Of a stretch of 36,214 nt of DNA, positions 24,005 through 30,646 are shown one piece after another. The notes under the pieces were generated by a model. That model was not told the origin of the DNA. It saw only the letters and a list, made by a program, of their open reading frames with translations, and made no database searches. Position 1 is the stretch's first letter. Each line of letters starts with the position of its first letter. The translations under genes were made by a program, and so were the position numbers. The stretch is from a virus, in IMG/VR virus record IMGVR_UViG_3300021426_000046; one strand, 5' to 3'.

Positions 24005-24229
24005 TTATGCTTCCTTTTTTTCTAACAAGATTTCCTTGTTAAATACATCAAAAAAAAGTTCTTCCATAGGGATACCGCTGTCAATTTCCAAGCGTTTCAT
24101 AGTGACTACATTAGGTTTCAACACTCCCATTTCCCACATGCTCCATGCCTGTTGGCTTACACCGTAGACTGCTGCCATGTCAGCTTGAGAGCGTTTGCCT
24201 CTAAAGGCAATCAGTTTTTCTCGTTTCAC
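24005..24229 (-). CDS. Cro-like XRE-family repressor (74 aa)
   Basis: FRGKRSQADMAAVYGVSQQAWSMWEMG is an HTH. GTG at 24229 after GGGGTGA. Divergent from the CI-like gene. Confidence 0.8.
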   Translation of the reverse strand: MKREKLIAFRGKRSQADMAAVYGVSQQAWSMWEMGVLKPNVVTMKRLEIDSGIPMEELFFDVFNKEILLEKKEA

Positions 24230-24248: not shown

Positions 24249-24345
24249 ACAAGATATACTTGTAATGATATAATACAAGTTTTCCTTGTCCATGTCAATA
24301 TTTTTTACAAGCTTAGCTGTGTTTATTTATACAAGTATTGATTGT
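24249..24345. promoter_or_regulatory. Switch region with four ACAAG-N5-CTTGT-type operator half-palindromes
   Basis: acaagatatacttgt at 24249-63 and acaagttttccttgt at 24275-89 (both with perfect 5-bp arms). acaagcttagctgtg at 24307-21 and acaagtattgattgt at 24331-45 are degenerate. A TATAAT lies at 24268-73. Confidence 0.65.
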
Positions 24346-24376
24346 AAAATCTATACTATAGATAGGAGTGATTGTA

Positions 24377-24808
24377 ATGTTTGCAATAAGACTCAAAGAG
24401 TTACGGACTAAAAAGAACAGCCTTACCCAGGCTAAACTTGCAGAAATAATGAATGTATCTCAACAGGCTGTTGGCTTATGGGAACGCGGTAAAAATATGC
24501 CTTCTCATGAATTAGTAGCTAAACTGGCCGCCTACTTCAACGTCACCACCGACTATCTCCTTGGCCTGTCCGACCAGCCACATGCTCCTCAGCAAGAGCC
24601 ACCTAAAACCAGCAATTCCTCCCCCCATCAGCAGCAGCCACTCCAGCCCGATACCCTCACCCCCGAAGAAGCTTCTCTCGTCCAAGCCTACCGCAACGCC
24701 AACGACCGCGACAAATCCATCATTGACACCATCCTCAAACCGGAAGTGCGTGCTCAGAGCGAAACCGTGGAAGAAACGCCCCTGAGCACTGCCGAACGTA
24801 TAGGATAA
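24377..24808 (+). CDS. CI-like XRE-family repressor (143 aa) without a peptidase domain
   Basis: LTQAKLAEIMNVSQQAVGLWERGKNMPS is an HTH ending in DYLLGLSD. It is followed by a Pro/Gln-rich linker and a 45-aa tail. RBS AGGAG plus 8 nt, then ATG at 24377. Confidence 0.85.
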   Translation: MFAIRLKELRTKKNSLTQAKLAEIMNVSQQAVGLWERGKNMPSHELVAKLAAYFNVTTDYLLGLSDQPHAPQQEPPKTSNSSPHQQQPLQPDTLTPEEASLVQAYRNANDRDKSIIDTILKPEVRAQSETVEETPLSTAERIG

Positions 24809-24856: not shown

Positions 24857-25228
24857 TTGAAACGTGATTTAGATTTACTTCGAGCTATTTTAATAAAAAT
24901 CGAATTCTTGGAACCATCATATGGAATCATGCGGCTACATACCTTCCATGAGCTATGTGATGACGACGTTGTGCTATCCTTGCATATCCAACTCTTACGG
25001 GATGCAGGCTTTATTGAAGTAACTGATTCTCTATATGCTGATGATATGGTACAAGACTTCCTTATCAGCAGAATAACATTTGCTGGCTACGATTATTTAG
25101 ACACAGTCCGCAATGAATCTATATGGAACGAAATAAAGCAAAAGATTTCCACCATTGGAGGAAGCGTTTCCATCGATGTCATCAAATCAATTGGGGTTGC
25201 TATCGTGAAGCAGCATCTAGGAATCTAG
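24857..25228 (+). CDS. DUF2513-like protein (123 aa)
   Basis: The N-terminus MKRDLDLLRAILIKIE matches the characteristic DUF2513 start, recalled from memory. TTG start. AT-rich. Confidence 0.6.
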   Translation: MKRDLDLLRAILIKIEFLEPSYGIMRLHTFHELCDDDVVLSLHIQLLRDAGFIEVTDSLYADDMVQDFLISRITFAGYDYLDTVRNESIWNEIKQKISTIGGSVSIDVIKSIGVAIVKQHLGI

Positions 25229-25490: not shown

Positions 25491-25583
25491 CGTGCTCAGA
25501 GCGATGCCGTGGAAGAAACGCCGATGAGCACCGCCCAAGCTCATACTAAAGCCCGCCCTATTATCCGAGAGTCTGCTGGTTAA
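25491..25583 (+). pseudogene. Remnant 2 of a repressor 3' end (last ~30 codons only)
   Basis: cgtgctcagagcgatgccgtggaagaaacgccgatgagcaccgcc aligns with the CI gene near 24748-24795. It ends at the TAA at 25581-83. It has no HTH part and no start. Confidence 0.75.
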
Positions 25584-25673
25584 CTCCCAAATCGTTCACT
25601 TACTCGGAATAGACAGGGAATCCAAAGCTTAATGCGTTCATAATATTGTTTAATGCATGATAGGAGGGTTTTT

Positions 25674-26255
25674 ATGTTTAACCTTGATAACAAGAGTAAA
25701 CTCATTCTCTGTTTTTCTCTTTTATTCGCCTTTGGTAGTGTTGCTTACTTATTTGGATATTACCATGGTGCAACAAACAGTATCCCTAAAAAGGCCTCAC
25801 AACTTGCAGAAAACGACATTCCCCCTCAAAAAGACACTCGTCTCGGCATAAGTGCCGATTTATTCATTCCCAACTTCAACGCTTTTTCCGACAGACTGCA
25901 TATATCGTCTTACCAAAATGTACAAAATGACTTCATCGAGTTTGGCAACAACAGCCAATCCATCATCATTATTGGCAAGGGAAATCCCAAAAATCTCGAC
26001 AGTATAGGTGTGATATTTCCCAAATATGACACCCGTGCACGCATAGACGGATTGACCGCAATTTATGCTACTATCTCCGCAGTAAGCCCGTCAACAACAG
26101 ATGCTGGGCGGGGGTATATTGGTGAACAGTTAGGGCTAGATGATGATATAGACAACAAAAGTGGCATGAAAATATCCGAATATAATGGCAAGCGATACGC
26201 TGTGACGTATGAACAAGGGAAAGTTACATTTATGTCAATGACGCAGCCTGAATAA
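25674..26255 (+). CDS. Membrane-anchored or secreted protein (193 aa), candidate superinfection-exclusion moron
   Basis: RBS TAGGAGGG plus 5 nt, then ATG at 25674. N-terminal hydrophobic helix KLILCFSLLFAFGSVAYLFGYY followed by a soluble domain. AT-rich. Confidence 0.65.
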   Translation: MFNLDNKSKLILCFSLLFAFGSVAYLFGYYHGATNSIPKKASQLAENDIPPQKDTRLGISADLFIPNFNAFSDRLHISSYQNVQNDFIEFGNNSQSIIIIGKGNPKNLDSIGVIFPKYDTRARIDGLTAIYATISAVSPSTTDAGRGYIGEQLGLDDDIDNKSGMKISEYNGKRYAVTYEQGKVTFMSMTQPE

Positions 26256-26282: not shown

Positions 26283-26538
26283 CTTCCCTTGGCCTGTCCG
26301 ACCAGCCACAGGGCCACCAGGCAGACTCCCCTGCTGCCGCCCGCAGCCACAAATCCAGTCCGATACCCTCACCCCTGAAGAAGCTGCCCTCGTCCAAGCC
26401 TACCGCAACGCCAACGACCGCGGCAAATCCATCGTTGATACCATCCTCAAACCGGAAGTGCGTGCTCAGAGCGAAGCCGTGGAAGAAACGCCGATGAGCA
26501 CCGCCACCTCCCACTCTATTCAAGAATCCGCCTGCTGA
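26283..26538 (+). pseudogene. Remnant 3 of a repressor gene (linker plus C-terminal tail of a different allele; internally frameshifted)
   Basis: It starts exactly at the LGLSDQP boundary (cttggcctgtccgaccagcca). The tail reads DTLTPEEAALVQAYRNANDRGKSIVDTILKPEVRAQSEAVEETPMSTA... up to the TGA at 26536-38. The proximal and distal parts are in different frames. Confidence 0.75.
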
Positions 26539-26552
26539 CCAATAACTCCATA

Positions 26553-26581
26553 TTGCATATACAAGCATCGTATGGTATACT
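26553..26581 (+). promoter_or_regulatory. Near-consensus promoter for a short plus-strand RNA
   Basis: TTGCAT (26553-58), a 17-nt spacer, then TATACT (26576-81). Confidence 0.55.
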
Positions 26582-26587
26582 AAGGGC

Positions 26588-26675
26588 AACGAGAAGAATA
26601 AGTGATTCCATGTAATCACCGACAAAAAGCCCCTTAGCATACGATTCACGGTCGATGCTAAGGGGCTTTTGTTTT
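26588..26675 (+). ncRNA. Candidate ~88-nt antisense/antitoxin sRNA (RNA II-like)
   Basis: Bounded by the promoter at 26553-81 and the intrinsic terminator at 26629-26675. It carries the 30-nt block 26591-26620, which is complementary to the translation initiation region of the peptide gene at 26705-26797. Confidence 0.4.
26622..26675. terminator. Bidirectional intrinsic terminator
   Basis: Perfect 12-bp stem gccccttagcat / atgctaaggggc (26629-40 and 26655-66). It is flanked by acaaaaa on the left and ttttgtttt on the right, so there are T-runs on both strands. Confidence 0.8.
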
Positions 26676-26704
26676 GCCATCAAGGATTCACGGTCCCGTC
26701 AGGC

Positions 26705-26797
26705 TTACTGCCGTGGCTTGAAATACCGTTCATAAACATATGCTGCGACAATGCCGCAGATAACATTTATGATAATTGAGAAGAATAAGTTGTCCAT
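26705..26797 (-). CDS. 30-aa hydrophobic peptide, candidate type I toxin (MDNLFFSIIINVICGIVAAYVYERYFKPRQ)
   Basis: GGAGGTGA plus 4 nt, then ATG at 26797. One transmembrane-length hydrophobic stretch plus a charged tail. It has its own promoter, an SD-sequestering hairpin and a terminator. Below the track cutoff. Confidence 0.55.
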   Translation of the reverse strand: MDNLFFSIIINVICGIVAAYVYERYFKPRQ

Positions 26798-26799
26798 AT

Positions 26800-26825
26800 A
26801 ATCACCTCCCTTCTCCGAGGTGATT
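26800..26825 (-). promoter_or_regulatory. 5' UTR hairpin sequestering the Shine-Dalgarno of the peptide gene
   Basis: The minus RNA reads AAUCACCUC-GGAGAAGG-GAGGUGAUU. It has a 9-bp perfect stem whose 3' arm is the RBS. Confidence 0.65.
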
Positions 26826-26845
26826 TACTGCACAGCAGCATGAGT

Positions 26846-26854
26846 AGTATAGCA
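26846..26854 (-). promoter_or_regulatory. Extended -10 promoter (TGCTATACT) for the peptide mRNA
   Basis: The minus strand reads ttgcttaTGcTATACTactca. The -35 (TTTTCT) is weak. Confidence 0.45.
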
Positions 26855-26949
26855 TAAGCAAACCGAAAAGAAAAGTCATACCGCCTGCCAGCAGCCACCA
26901 ACCCCCCCGATTCCCTTAATGCCCCTAATCATGGACCGCAAGAAGCCAT

Positions 26950-26984
26950 AAAAAAGTAAGCCGCTCCAAACAGGAACGGCTTAT
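26950..26984 (-). terminator. Terminator of the orf216 / HTH-M78 cassette
   Basis: On the minus strand: TAAGCCG-ttcctgtttggag-CGGCTTA followed by CTTTTTTAT. It lies 3 nt after the stop at 26987. Confidence 0.65.
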
Positions 26985-26986
26985 TT

Positions 26987-28108
26987 TCATTTATTCATAA
27001 GTTTAATGATTGAATCTTCTTCGCTAAAATATCCCCTAGGAAGATTGGCTGCTTTTTCAATCAATTCTGCTGGTAAGGATATATTATCCACTAAATCTTG
27101 TTTCGTGGATAACCCCTTATCCACGAATAATTCTATTGATTGCTTATATAAACGAGGCTTTTCAGGAGTTATCTCCTTATCTCCTGGCTCTATCTTCCTC
27201 CAATGCTTTCTTGAAATTTGTTTTTGCATATACTCATACTTATCTTCAGTGATGATTTCGAACTTTCTAGCCCGTATAATCATGGCTGATATAGATGTTT
27301 TCCATTTGGGTTTGAGATATAAAAGTGCATCTAAAGAAGATGAAAAATCTGATAAAAATTCCTTTTGTGGAAGAAGTAAAGCCCCAGCAAATTCCTTTGC
27401 CTCTTCCTCCATCGTTTTCAGCTCTTCTTCTGCCATTTCTTCATCATGGAAATACAAATGACAAATCTCATGCGCAATGCTCATTCTCAACCTTACAGCT
27501 GAATTATCTTTGTTTACAAAAATATATGGTCTTCCATTCTCCCAAAAGGAAAAGCCATCCACTTTCTGTGTATCCATAGACATCACTACTATAATGATAC
27601 CATGTTTTTCAGCTGACAATATTAAATTATTTATTGGTCCTGGTGGCAACTTCCACGCGCGTCTTATAAGTTTTGCCCATAACTCAGGATCTCTTCTTTT
27701 TTCGATACTCATGGATGTTTTTATATCTGTAAAACTTTTATCTACAGGTGGAAAATTTATTTTATCATGAAAATATCCAGTAATATTAGCTACTATCATA
27801 TCTGCGATTTTCAGAGTTTTTTCTCGCTCATGCTTTGTAGCTGTACTGAATTTTCGAAAGAACACTTTACTACGATCTATATAATCCAAATTCTGAGATT
27901 GATAAAAGCTTAGGGGAAATCCATAAATATTTTTTAGTTGAAAAAATTTTTCAGAGTTTACTGCGCAACCACCACGCTCAAAAAGTGATAACGCCTGCGA
28001 TGTAACCCCTATTTTTTCTGCAACACTTTTTATCGTTAATCCTGATGCTATACGTGCATCACGAAGTCGTTGCGGAATATAATTTAATCTATTTACCGCC
28101 ATTTTCAT
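26987..28108 (-). CDS. Fused XRE-HTH / ImmA-IrrE (peptidase M78, COG2856) zinc metalloprotease with a C-terminal extension (~373 aa)
   Basis: N-terminus LRDARIASGLTIKSVAEKIGVTSQALSLFERG is an XRE HTH. The centre SIAHEICHLYFH carries an HExxH site in M78-like context (..AKEFAGALLLP). Start is ATG 28108 or 28102. It overlaps the upstream gene by ~20 nt. Confidence 0.8.
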   Translation of the reverse strand: MKMAVNRLNYIPQRLRDARIASGLTIKSVAEKIGVTSQALSLFERGGCAVNSEKFFQLKNIYGFPLSFYQSQNLDYIDRSKVFFRKFSTATKHEREKTLKIADMIVANITGYFHDKINFPPVDKSFTDIKTSMSIEKRRDPELWAKLIRRAWKLPPGPINNLILSAEKHGIIIVVMSMDTQKVDGFSFWENGRPYIFVNKDNSAVRLRMSIAHEICHLYFHDEEMAEEELKTMEEEAKEFAGALLLPQKEFLSDFSSSLDALLYLKPKWKTSISAMIIRARKFEIITEDKYEYMQKQISRKHWRKIEPGDKEITPEKPRLYKQSIELFVDKGLSTKQDLVDNISLPAELIEKAANLPRGYFSEEDSIIKLMNK

Positions 28109-28739
28109 CACGTTTCTTTACCATATTCAAAAATTCTTCATTTAATTCAACTAGAACTTCTTCTTCATCATTATCTGAAATTACTGAATATGCACCTCTA
28201 TCCAGCGGTTCACAGTACCACCAATTAGAAAGTCCTAACACCCCTATATTACCAAATTGAAAAGAGTTTTTCCCTCTATCTCCATACGTTGCTGTGAATG
28301 TACTGATTTTATTTGGTTCCCATTTCATTGGTTCAAATAAGTTTATCTCTATATTTCCTATTGTTGGGCGATATAATGCTTTATGAGGAATTTCCTCTGG
28401 CCATTCCACTCTGGCTATATAGAGCGAACAATTATCTTTTTCTAATCTTACATGTCGACAATTTTTGGCTTTATTACATTCTTCTGTATATAAAAACTCC
28501 AAATAACCTTTTTGACAATATTTTTTTGTGAAACTCGCAATAGCTGCTCTAAGAATATGTGGACGTACATCTTTTTGTCCAATAATAGTATCCAATAAAA
28601 AGTTTTCCATCACTTGTGATGTGTATAGTTGTTCTACTGCTTCGTAAGCACTATCAATAGCCGCCCGCAAGCAATGAATATCCTGTGACTGAAATAATTT
28701 CTTAAACTGCCTCTTGGATTCAATTTCGAACTCTAGCAT
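28089..28739 (-). CDS. Unknown 216-aa protein (orf216), first gene of the cassette
   Basis: GTGAGG plus 7 nt, then ATG at 28739. No motif I recognise and no transmembrane segment. Helical N-half, Trp/Tyr-rich C-half (..KWEPNKISTFTATYGDRGKNSFQFGNIGVLGLSNWWYCEPLDRG..) and an acidic tail. GC was 30% in one line I counted. Confidence 0.7.
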   Translation of the reverse strand: MLEFEIESKRQFKKLFQSQDIHCLRAAIDSAYEAVEQLYTSQVMENFLLDTIIGQKDVRPHILRAAIASFTKKYCQKGYLEFLYTEECNKAKNCRHVRLEKDNCSLYIARVEWPEEIPHKALYRPTIGNIEINLFEPMKWEPNKISTFTATYGDRGKNSFQFGNIGVLGLSNWWYCEPLDRGAYSVISDNDEEEVLVELNEEFLNMVKKRDENGGK

Positions 28740-28751
28740 AATCACGCCTCA

Positions 28752-28773
28752 CTTTCAAAAACACCTTTGAAAG
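28752..28773. promoter_or_regulatory. Perfect palindrome CTTTCAAA-N6-TTTGAAAG between the -10 and the RBS of orf216 (candidate operator)
   Basis: Read directly: 8-bp arms at 28752-59 and 28766-73. Confidence 0.6.
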
Positions 28774-28774
28774 T

Positions 28775-28803
28775 AATATAGCACTTTTTTGTAAAAAAAT
28801 CAA
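28775..28803 (-). promoter_or_regulatory. Promoter of the orf216 / HTH-M78 operon
   Basis: On the minus strand: TTGATT (28798-803), a 17-nt spacer, then TATATT (28775-80). Confidence 0.6.
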
Positions 28804-28945
28804 GTAATATGATAGAAAACCGCACAAAAGTTGTGAACTCAGCCGAACTAGCCCCCCAACACACATATCCGCGTGCGTTGGGGAATTTTTTATTTGCTAC
28901 AATGGGGATAGAACATCTGACAGTCTCCGAAAGGAGGCTGGCTCT

Positions 28946-30646
28946 ATGCCAAGAGCAAAGAAAGCGGCGATATACTGCCGTGTATCTACCATTCATCAGG
29001 TAGACAAAGACTCCCTGCCGATGCAGCGGAGCGATATGATTAACTACGCGAAGTATGCCCTCAATATTGAAGACTACGAGGTTTTCGAAGATGCGGGATA
29101 CTCAGGGAAGAATACTGACCGACCAGCATATCAGGAAATGATGGAACGCATCAAGGAAGGCGAATTCACTCATGTGCTGGTTTGGAAAATTGACCGTGTC
29201 AGCCGTAATTTGCTGGACTTTGCCTCTATGTATGCCGAATGCAAGAATTTGGGCGTAACCTTTGTGTCCAAGAACGAGCAATTCGATACTTCCACGGCCA
29301 TGGGCGAAGCCATGCTAAAGATTGTCCTGGTATTTGCCGAGTTGGAACGCAATATGACCAGTGAGCGCGTCATGTCCACGATGAACGCTCGGGCCACTGA
29401 AGGGAAATGGAATGGCGGCCGTGTACCTTTTGGATACAGCTATGACAAGGAGACGGATTCGTTCTCCATCCGTGAAGATGAGGCCAAGGTAGTCCATGAA
29501 ATGAAAAACATCTACCTGCGTCTTCATTCCATCACGGGCACGGCCCATGAGCTCAATGCCATTGGCCGCCGCACACGCCGTGGCTATGGCTGGACGCCTC
29601 AGACCGTAGCAATTATTCTACGCAGTCCTTTTTATCGTGGTACATACCGCTACAATTATAGAAATGAAACCAAAGGTACTTTTACCTTCAAAGACCAAAA
29701 AGACTGGGTCATGTGCAGCAAACATCATGAAGCTCTATTTACTCAGGAAGAATATGATAACATCGACTATTGGCTGACCAAGAACCGCCGCTTGCAGGGA
29801 AAAGCCACTCACTCCCAGCGAAAAAATGTTCACATCTTCGCCGGGCTGATAAAATGTGGCAACTGCGGGGACAACTACTTCGCTTCTCTCAGCCGGACGC
29901 TGGCTTCCGGATACCGGCCTTCGATGTACCAATGCAGCGGCCGACGGCAGAAGGCACTTTGCGATAATAAGTATGTCACCGATATAACCATTGGCAACTT
30001 TGTGTTCAACTACATCAGCAACATGATCCGACTGAAAAAGGCGTTTTCACCACGCTGGCAGATGCGTCGAATCTGCAGCACCTTACTGCGCGGTGACACC
30101 TTCCGCGAAATAAAAGCCATCTCCCCTGCCACACTCGCCAGCATCCGTACCACACTGATAGATAACCTTACTTGTACCACTGAATACCAGCCGATAAAAA
30201 ATAGACATGGCCCGGAAGCAGCTAAACGCAAAGATGAAAACCTGCAGGCAGAGTTGGATAAGAACACCCGCGCCCTTGACCGGTTGAAGCATCTATTCCT
30301 GTATGCGGATGATGCCATGGGACAGGCCGAATTCCTGCAGCAAAAGAAAGCCCTGGAAGATAATATTACGCGCATCAAGGGAGAGCTCGATGCCATCCGC
30401 AAGAGCTCCATCTTTGCCACCAATTTGTCCGAGGAGATATTTGTACAAAAAGCTGCCCAATTTTTCATGAATACTGCATTGCAGAAAGGACGCATTGATT
30501 TTGAACAGCTCGCCACTCAAACGGAGGCTACCATACTGAAAGATTTCGTTAATGCCATAGTGTCTCGTATCAGTGTACGCAACGGCAAGATTATCGAGCT
30601 TGAATTTACCAATGGCCAAATACATAGATTTGAATACTCTCTATGA
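28946..30646 (+). CDS. int: Large serine recombinase (integrase)
   Basis: AAIYCRVSTIHQ catalytic-Ser motif, a resolvase domain (..VWKIDRVSRN..), a recombinase domain, a Cys cluster (CGNCG...C..) and a C-terminal coiled coil. 566 aa. RBS AAAGGAGG. Confidence 0.9.
   Translation: MPRAKKAAIYCRVSTIHQVDKDSLPMQRSDMINYAKYALNIEDYEVFEDAGYSGKNTDRPAYQEMMERIKEGEFTHVLVWKIDRVSRNLLDFASMYAECKNLGVTFVSKNEQFDTSTAMGEAMLKIVLVFAELERNMTSERVMSTMNARATEGKWNGGRVPFGYSYDKETDSFSIREDEAKVVHEMKNIYLRLHSITGTAHELNAIGRRTRRGYGWTPQTVAIILRSPFYRGTYRYNYRNETKGTFTFKDQKDWVMCSKHHEALFTQEEYDNIDYWLTKNRRLQGKATHSQRKNVHIFAGLIKCGNCGDNYFASLSRTLASGYRPSMYQCSGRRQKALCDNKYVTDITIGNFVFNYISNMIRLKKAFSPRWQMRRICSTLLRGDTFREIKAISPATLASIRTTLIDNLTCTTEYQPIKNRHGPEAAKRKDENLQAELDKNTRALDRLKHLFLYADDAMGQAEFLQQKKALEDNITRIKGELDAIRKSSIFATNLSEEIFVQKAAQFFMNTALQKGRIDFEQLATQTEATILKDFVNAIVSRISVRNGKIIELEFTNGQIHRFEYSL

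Follow-up and report, generated by a model that had tools for sequence, protein, structure and literature searches.

Par-like type I toxin-antitoxin (TA) loci are defined by convergent promoters, a bidirectional terminator, the directly repeated blocks DRa and DRb, plus a 5' stem-loop that sequesters the ribosome-binding site together with a 5' helix (PMC7472228 Fig. 1; PMC4147584). In par of pAD1 from Enterococcus faecalis (RNA I/fst and RNA II) and in chromosomal par-like loci, the DRa/DRb-type blocks make the small RNA (sRNA) complementary to the Shine-Dalgarno (SD) sequence and initiation codon of the toxin mRNA, the helix at the 5' end stabilizes or locks that mRNA, the terminator loops are complementary, and the toxin is a peptide of about 30 amino acids (aa) with a transmembrane (TM) helix and a charged tail. 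The Staphylococcus aureus loci SprA1/SprA1AS (PepA1) and SprA2/SprA2AS are par-homologous members of the Fst family that encode a 30-aa peptide, and SprA1 is located on a pathogenicity island, a mobile element. Repeats are poorly conserved between par paralogues, which makes these orthogonal (PMC7472228, PMC4147584); no cross-talk is reported between par(pAD1) and par(EF0409) (PMC7472228). Type I TAs, several per prophage, are already known from prophages (PMC5961336, PMC6563280, PMC7699646), and those of Clostridioides difficile prophages have been shown to aid prophage maintenance (PMC5961336, PMC7699646). Here we analyze a locus at 26553-26854 of a viral genome, IMG/VR record IMGVR_UViG_3300021426_000046; the whole stretch of 36,214 nucleotides (nt) is called the window, and all coordinates refer to it. 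The locus shares the par features listed above, and at the sequence level it corresponds to the par-like architecture on four counts: the promoters, the terminator, the direct-repeat pairing, and the 5' stem-loop with its 5' helix. We consider it very probable that it is a functional par-like type I TA module in the lysogeny region of a temperate Firmicutes phage. This reading draws on the sequence elements, the pairing energies, the genomic context, co-variation over nine modules, which gives unusually strong support, and evidence that the peptide is under purifying selection.

The elements were read directly from both strands of 26400-27000 and are as follows, with the basis of each assignment in brackets.

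26854-26846, minus strand: toxin promoter, extended -10 TGCTATACT (direct reading)
26831-26839, minus strand: 5' end of the toxin mRNA, GCUGCUGUG (minimum free energy (MFE) fold and eight-RNA consensus)
26800-26825, minus strand: anti-SD hairpin of the 5' untranslated region (UTR), AAUCACCUC (26825-26817) / GAGGUGAUU (26808-26800), 8-nt loop (direct reading, fold)
26809-26805, minus strand: SD GGAGG, inside the 5' UTR hairpin
26778-26809, minus strand: toxin translation-initiation region (TIR), consisting of direct-repeat copy 2 (26778-26806) and the SD (predicted sRNA target)
26705-26797, minus strand: toxin open reading frame (ORF), 30 aa, MDNLFFSIIINVICGIVAAYVYERYFKPRQ, ATG at 26797, stop at 26707-26705 (direct reading)
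26743-26759, minus strand: top of the ORF-internal hairpin, CUGCGGCAUUGUCGCAG (belongs to the conserved toxin mRNA fold)
26676-26704, minus strand: toxin 3' UTR hairpin, inner stem 26694-97 / 26683-86, loop CCGUGAA at 26693-26687 (fold, repeat)
26625-26670, both strands: bidirectional intrinsic terminator with perfect 16-bp arms, 26625-40 / 26655-70 (inverted-repeat scan, folds)
26591-26620, plus strand: direct-repeat copy 1, the sRNA targeting block and counterpart of par DRa/DRb, complementary to the SD, AUG and codons 1-7 of the toxin (pairing, exact repeats)
26588-26675, plus strand: predicted antitoxin sRNA, about 88 nt (ends inferred from promoter and terminator)
26553-26581, plus strand: sRNA promoter, -35 TTGCAT (26553-58), 17-nt spacer, extended -10 TGGTATACT (26573-81) (direct reading)

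The extended -10, the hairpin that buries the SD and the 30-aa ORF on the minus strand, all proposed in a first-pass annotation of this sequence, were each found where that annotation had placed them. The -35 of the toxin promoter is weak or absent in the window. The predicted toxin mRNA is about 220 nt long and its fold has a z-score of -5.8. On the plus strand, a simple consensus promoter scan missed the sRNA promoter because TTGCAT matches TTGACA at only three of six positions. The -10 TATACT lies at 26576-81 with TGG directly before it, which makes it an extended -10, and the imperfect -35 is compensated by this element and by the comparative data given below. The annotation's proposal that TTGCAT-17-TATACT drives an RNA of about 88 nt into a terminator shared with the toxin gene holds for the elements as read, the transcript itself being predicted, and the promoter is conserved in all nine modules. 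Its 12-bp perfect terminator needs correction: the perfect inverted repeat is present, but the 12 bp (GCCCCTTAGCAT) are only the G+C core of 16-bp arms that also include four A-U pairs, with T-runs on both strands. At the apex, a CGA/UCG stem closes a 7-nt loop that reads CCGUGAA in the toxin sense and UUCACGG in the sRNA sense; the latter starts with the YUNR motif UUCA. The sRNA (MFE -36.7 kcal/mol, z = -7.4) consists of a 5' part of about 35 nt, for which the consensus shows little structure, and the terminator hairpin downstream of it; in the consensus fold of eight sRNAs, about 45 columns at the 5' end are unpaired. No Rfam 15 family reached its gathering score in the window, and 26300-27100 gave chance-level matches only.

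The repeats that join the two RNAs are specific to the locus. In the 36 kb, each half of the duplicated block has exactly two occurrences: GAGAAGAATAAGT at 26591 and 26778 (expected 0.08) and TCCATRTAATCACC at 26607 and 26793 (expected 0.05), in agreement with the duplication that the first-pass annotation had placed at 26591-26620 and 26778-26806. The 11-mer GATTCACGGTC, which had been proposed to make the sRNA terminator loop complementary to the toxin 3' UTR, is likewise found at two sites only, 26643 in the terminator loop and 26685 in the 3' UTR (expected 0.00).

Pairing was evaluated with RNAduplex between the non-overlapping 5' part of the predicted sRNA and the 5' region of the toxin mRNA. 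The duplex comprises a 14-bp helix from GGUG of the SD to codon 2, with one G-U pair, and a 13-bp helix over codons 3-7. The previously described pairing with the SD/AUG and early codons is thus recovered, including the single G-U, with helices of 14 and 13 bp in place of 13 and 12. The total energy is -43.0 kcal/mol (z = -9.9), and it was reached by none of 1000 dinucleotide-shuffled versions of the sRNA segment, which gave -14.8 +/- 2.9 kcal/mol. Opening both partners costs about 14.0 + 6.9 kcal/mol, which leaves a net energy of about -22 kcal/mol. A 37-nt probe slid along both strands of the entire window ranked 26585-26593 (+) as the best TIR partner after the trivial perfect antisense.

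We found eight further complete modules in phage and metagenome contigs, giving nine modules in seven specificity groups. They were obtained from repressor-retrieved loci screened by blastn and tblastn, from DNA patterns and from one exact look-up. Three of them (A, B and C) are neighbors on a single IMG/VR phage contig (L014, IMGVR_UViG_3300021256_002213); E is from L093, F, G and H are from metagenome contigs, I is from L100, and W denotes the module of the window. A phmmer search against 1.84 billion representative proteins returned two gene calls only for the toxin family. A tandem-duplicated peptide query gave no protein match, and an exact-sequence look-up found none. At the DNA level, blastn of the locus against GenBank phages gave no match, a degenerate N-terminal pattern had no match in IMG/VR and only chance matches in GTDB genomes (unrelated longer ORFs starting MDNLFF/MDNFFF), and a 5' UTR pattern of subfamily 2 retrieved only a contig that was already known.

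Across the nine modules, both promoters are conserved while spacers vary. The sRNA promoter is present in all nine, with -35 TTGATA, TTGCAT or TTGCGC, a variable spacer of 17-18 nt and TGnTATACT or TGnTATAAT as extended -10, and the toxin promoter keeps TGnTATACT or TGnTATAAT in every module at a fixed distance from the conserved 5' end. The stem of the terminator is conserved with compensatory changes. Conservation of the duplicated block among relatives, the lack of which the first-pass annotation had named as refuting its reading, was found in eight of eight related modules: each has the block, in a module-specific sequence. The duplex spans GGUG of the SD, the start codon and about seven codons in all modules, with both-side changes at many positions. 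Cognate sRNA/TIR duplexes have energies of -34 to -49 kcal/mol (mean -41.8), versus a mean of -21.9 +/- 5.8 for non-cognate combinations. Of 40320 permutations of the partners, only 2 match the observed total: the identity and the one that exchanges H and I, which are near-identical. The three tandem modules of one phage (L014 8640-10140) are mutually orthogonal by this measure (cognate -42 to -49, cross -16 to -27 kcal/mol), which mirrors the behavior of par(pAD1) and par(EF0409).

The loop complementarity shows the same pattern. The motif shared by the 3' UTR hairpin loop and the terminator apex (6-11 nt) is module-specific in all nine modules; because it recurs in this manner, the 11-mer complementarity in the window is a conserved feature and not a coincidence. 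The 3' UTR loop CCGUGAA is a copy of the terminator-apex loop, and we propose that this hairpin is a second kissing site for the sRNA terminator loop. In subfamily 1, the apex loop of the sRNA reads UUNRNGG and begins with YUNR (UUCA, UUUG, UUCG or UUAG); this is not so in B and C.

One alternative is that the sRNA acts mainly through its 3' overlap with the toxin mRNA, where a perfectly complementary terminator duplex of about 55 nt would be cut by RNase III and the mRNA degraded as in txpA/RatA, the 5' pairing being secondary. Control by degradation has precedents among type I systems with a 3' overlap (PMC4147584, PMC6563280), and RNAcofold, run on the full-length RNAs, favors the fully extended duplex of the terminator (-159.1 vs -118.3 kcal/mol for the monomers). 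Against this, strand exchange between two very stable 16-bp terminator hairpins is kinetically disfavored, and the overlap stops short of the ORF. Moreover, strong co-variation and module specificity are found in the 5' block and in the 7-nt loops; the stem is near-identical in W, E, F, G and H and so cannot give specificity. We consider action mainly through the 3' overlap unlikely and prefer pairing of the sRNA 5' part with the TIR.

The toxin mRNA has a fold that is conserved as a whole. In the consensus of eight RNAs, 89.5% is paired, 15 pairs have changes on both sides (6.4 +/- 1.7 in column shuffles), and sliding the partners cuts pairing to 34-48%. In a long-range helix between the two ends, GCUGCUGUG at 26831-39 pairs with CACGGCAGU at the last codons and stop (26707-26715), closing the whole ORF. 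This helix is seen in the MFE fold of the window and in the eight-RNA consensus (helices 1-2); B and C use UGUCGCG/CGCGACA at the same places. We infer that it is the equivalent of the par 5'-UH. The core of the anti-SD hairpin, the analogue of the par 5'-SL, is CACCUC/GAGGUG (helix 3) in all six subfamily-1 modules that alignment A1 contains and, by direct reading, in module I; B and C have a different G+C-rich anti-SD segment instead. The ORF-internal hairpin (helices 4-5) is 85-92% paired with four pairs changed on both sides, and the 3' UTR hairpin (helix 7) has both-side changes in five of five stem pairs.

The peptide encoded in the window has an uncharged hydrophobic core at residues 4-21 with an NxxxG motif, followed by the aromatic and charged tail YERYFKPRQ. 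An alignment of eight homologues shows peptides of 29-31 aa with invariant A18, Y20, Y22 and R24. The TM core carries N-xxx-G in subfamily 1, GxxxG in B and SxxxS in C, and the boundary aromatic is Y-x-Y, not W. Outside the RNA-pairing block, five of six pairs have a ratio of nonsynonymous to synonymous changes (pN/pS) of 0.19-0.40, a sign of purifying selection at the protein level.

The TM core and charged tail resemble the Fst/Ldr signature, a resemblance that is not proof of homology. Pfam gave no match for the peptide at E<=10 beyond noise. A profile of the eight members did not retrieve Fst (2kv5) or PepA1 (4b19) at E<=10, the sequences of both entries having been verified, and the hhalign probability against the two is only 1-2%. 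The only local alignment to PepA1 (hhalign 1.4%) sets IIINVICGI opposite IIAPVISGC and is a resemblance only. The weakest-but-best NCBIfam match, to the C. difficile toxin model CD_typeI_toxin (NF047374), has 12-16 bits against a cut-off of 60 (best 15.8 bits, E 0.014) and covers the TM segment only. None of the papers searched contained the peptide motifs. Membership in the Fst/Ldr family, like that in the C. difficile toxin family, was rejected as statistically unsupported; weak PTS-EIIC and NCE101 matches were rejected as TM-segment similarity only. The first-pass annotation had called the locus par/Fst-like. Its par-like architecture stands, but the peptide is not a demonstrable Fst/Ldr homologue (no Pfam match and the hhalign values above); the term par-like is justified by the predicted way of working, not by the toxin family.

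The lack of homology to a proven toxin also suits a second alternative, namely that the peptide is a non-toxic phage membrane protein (superinfection-exclusion, holin-modulating or a lysogeny accessory) whose level is tuned by the antisense RNA, with no addiction or abortive function. Lysogenic-conversion cargo next to the repressor would equally accommodate exclusion genes. This is at odds with the three silencing layers (anti-SD hairpin, 5'-3' helix and an sRNA over the SD/AUG) and the orthogonal arrays, which are hallmarks of type I toxins, and with the peptide's size, its one TM segment, its small-xxx-G motif and its aromatic/charged tail, all typical of Fst/PepA1-like toxins (PMC7472228). 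We regard a non-toxic role as quite unlikely and a toxin as the better description.

It is extremely improbable that the downstream block is only what remains of a tandemly duplicated toxin gene start and yields no antisense RNA: the blocks are same-strand direct repeats and minus-strand copy 1 keeps a GGTGATTACATG-like SD and an ATG, but the downstream copy has no conserved reading frame (products of 11-46 aa, with stops that differ among modules), the plus-strand promoter stands at a fixed distance in nine of nine modules, and the blocks match within and differ between modules, which neutral decay would not yield. A minus-strand ORF through copy 1 (MESLILLVALSIPYDAC...) was also considered as a second peptide and rejected, its frame and length not being conserved among modules.

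Several observations weigh against a functional par-like TA module. Among the known toxin families compared (Pfam, NCBIfam, Fst and PepA1), none is significantly similar to the peptide, and no Rfam family matches the locus. Whereas par has its YUNR motif in the toxin RNA, here it sits in the sRNA loop, and B and C lack it. Neither -35 box is perfect in the window: the sRNA promoter has TTGCAT, and the toxin promoter has no obvious one. The modules number only nine and several are closely related, so that the covariation statistics rest on few independent lineages. Gene conversion, instead of selection on pairing, could in principle maintain the identity of repeats within a module; selection on pairing is favored because of the G-U pairs and the unequal internal loops.

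We propose the following mechanism, in which transcription, relative RNA stabilities, binding order, toxicity and biological role are all predictions. The extended -10-dependent promoter would give the mRNA of about 220 nt for a 30-aa single-pass membrane peptide. Alone, this mRNA would be translationally locked twice, by the anti-SD hairpin and by the 5'-3' helix that closes the ORF. The convergent promoter, presumably the stronger one, would produce the sRNA of about 88 nt ending in the shared bidirectional terminator. The sRNA terminator loop UUCACGG, complementary to the two identical 7-nt mRNA loops (terminator apex and 3' UTR hairpin), probably nucleates binding, after which the single-stranded 5' part of the sRNA would zip onto the SD, AUG and codons 1-7 through the 14- and 13-bp helices and block ribosome loading. 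If the phage genome were lost or the sRNA decayed, the longer-lived mRNA would be translated and the peptide would damage the membrane; the prophage would be stabilized, or growth aborted. By analogy with the TAs of C. difficile phiCD630 (PMC7699646), the likely role is prophage maintenance, or else exclusion or abortive infection.

More tentatively, the modules may form a distinct par-type family with two features beyond those described for par, a dedicated 3' UTR kissing hairpin and exchangeable cassettes bounded by repeats of the repressor 3' end, although we think this possible rather than probable. If true, the sRNA terminator loop could bind the toxin mRNA at a site beyond the overlap, perhaps during transcription and ahead of terminator synthesis. 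The cassettes would allow arrays of orthogonal modules (three and a remnant in one phage) and toxin-less 'orphan antitoxin' derivatives, and competing temperate phages would have in the system a recombining barcode of addiction and anti-addiction. Both the additional kissing hairpin and the cassette arrays with their flanking repressor-tail repeats may be variants of the known design, par being a textbook architecture.

Compared with par, the phage modules differ in several respects. The peptide has no detectable Fst homology, carries NxxxG (GxxxG/SxxxS in B/C) instead of PxxxG, and has Tyr-x-Tyr where Fst-family toxins carry Trp. In par, binding starts at the terminator loops, with a YUNR U-turn in RNA I; the phage modules have complementary loops with YUNR in the sRNA of subfamily 1 and not in the toxin RNA, and an extra 3' UTR hairpin that holds a second copy of the terminator loop. 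The mRNA 5' end pairs with the stop-codon region, so that the whole ORF is closed, and the carrier is a phage, not a plasmid or core chromosome. SprA1 and SprA2 likewise differ in the loop and UTR elements. As proposed for the phage sRNA, their antitoxin acts on the TIR through a 5' domain outside the 3' overlap. Long-range 5'-3' pairing that closes an inert toxin mRNA is also known from hok/sok and from Helicobacter pylori aapA/IsoA, as is a YUNR U-turn loop in the antisense RNA. Unlike the phage modules, these systems have divergent genes with overlap at the 5' end, and hok employs a leader ORF (mok) as well as 3' processing; for the phage module we found no evidence of mRNA processing.

Bacillus subtilis SPbeta and skin and prophages of S. 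aureus also carry type I TAs. The view of the first-pass annotation that the arrangement is unusual for a prophage does not hold, since type I TAs in prophages are already known and C. difficile phiCD630 carries several (PMC5961336, PMC7699646). The C. difficile systems (CD0956.2/RCd10, CD2907.1/RCd9, CD0977.1/RCd11 and others) share with the phage modules the type I mode, the location in temperate phages, the presence of several per prophage and convergent overlapping transcripts. They differ in their toxins of 34-53 aa, in long, fully complementary antitoxins with extensive mRNA overlap, and in having no duplicated 5' blocks.

With these modules, the par-type type I TAs would gain an unannotated toxin/sRNA family for which Pfam, NCBIfam and Rfam have no model, and the par architecture would reach temperate phages whose hosts are uncultured Firmicutes of gut or rumen type. 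The seven specificity groups, whose pairing blocks co-vary, form a natural data set on the evolution of antisense specificity and orthogonality, and the second, conserved kissing hairpin adds a testable element to the binding pathway known from par. Standard phage annotation misses such loci, which may explain prophage stability or exclusion phenotypes.

The window is an essentially complete genome of about 36 kb of a temperate siphovirus, encoding a tape-measure-like protein, a major head protein, a portal, TerL, a replication initiator, a ParB-like protein, a holin and an endolysin. TerL is 60-65% identical to TerL of Bacillus, Caldibacillus and Terrisporobacter phages. The same genome is found as a 36,142-nt metagenome contig with 122x coverage (ena:ERZ12302851 NODE_1936), whose ends adjoin the recombinase gene. 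The sequenced form of the element may be a circular phage genome, free or induced, and not an integrated prophage. The TA module lies in the lysogeny region, whose features are the following.

24368-24808, plus strand: helix-turn-helix (HTH) repressor
after the repressor, in this order: DUF2513 protein, 200-aa protein, truncated copy of the repressor 3' end, TA module
26987-28111, minus strand: XRE-M78 fusion, then a 218-aa ORF
28946-30646, plus strand: serine recombinase, after the 218-aa ORF

Where flanks of relatives are available, the neighbors of the module are a repressor or ImmA-like protein plus a tyrosine integrase in L093, an HTH protein in L095 and a serine recombinase in L100.

Downstream of the repressor gene, its 3' end recurs in truncated form (window 24559-24793, 25491-25535 and 26287-26505; 176 nt at 88% identity, with a 45-nt core in three copies). 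The copies bracket cargo cassettes, the TA module included, and such repeats also flank modules elsewhere (both flanks of module H in L097, and L014 9370-9480). This suggests gain, loss and exchange of cassettes by homologous recombination. Two toxin-less remnants (L014 9886-10002 and L013 7406-7523) consist of an sRNA-type promoter fused to the antisense of the last 14 or so codons of the toxin (…IAAYIYERYFKQCQ), followed by a terminator. These could be decay products, or orphan antisense RNAs against the coding regions of other modules.

Next to the module, an island of low GC content (27001-29000; 0.35-0.36 vs about 0.47 elsewhere) holds the XRE-HTH/M78-peptidase fusion (374 aa) and the overlapping 218-aa ORF, which has no family match. 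A search with the fusion gave no relatives in IMG/VR, and no exact match was found. The island looks like separately acquired cargo, possibly a regulatory or defense pair. A 15-nt palindrome, ACAAGnnnnnCTTGT, occurs in four copies (24025-24039, 24249-24263, 24275-24289 and 25051-25065), three of them intergenic and just upstream of the repressor gene; these are probably operator sites of the lysis-lysogeny switch. The 200-aa ORF (25653-26255, plus strand) has no Pfam or PHROG match; it has a hydrophobic N-terminal segment, lies between two repressor-tail repeats, and looks like another cargo cassette of the lysogeny region.

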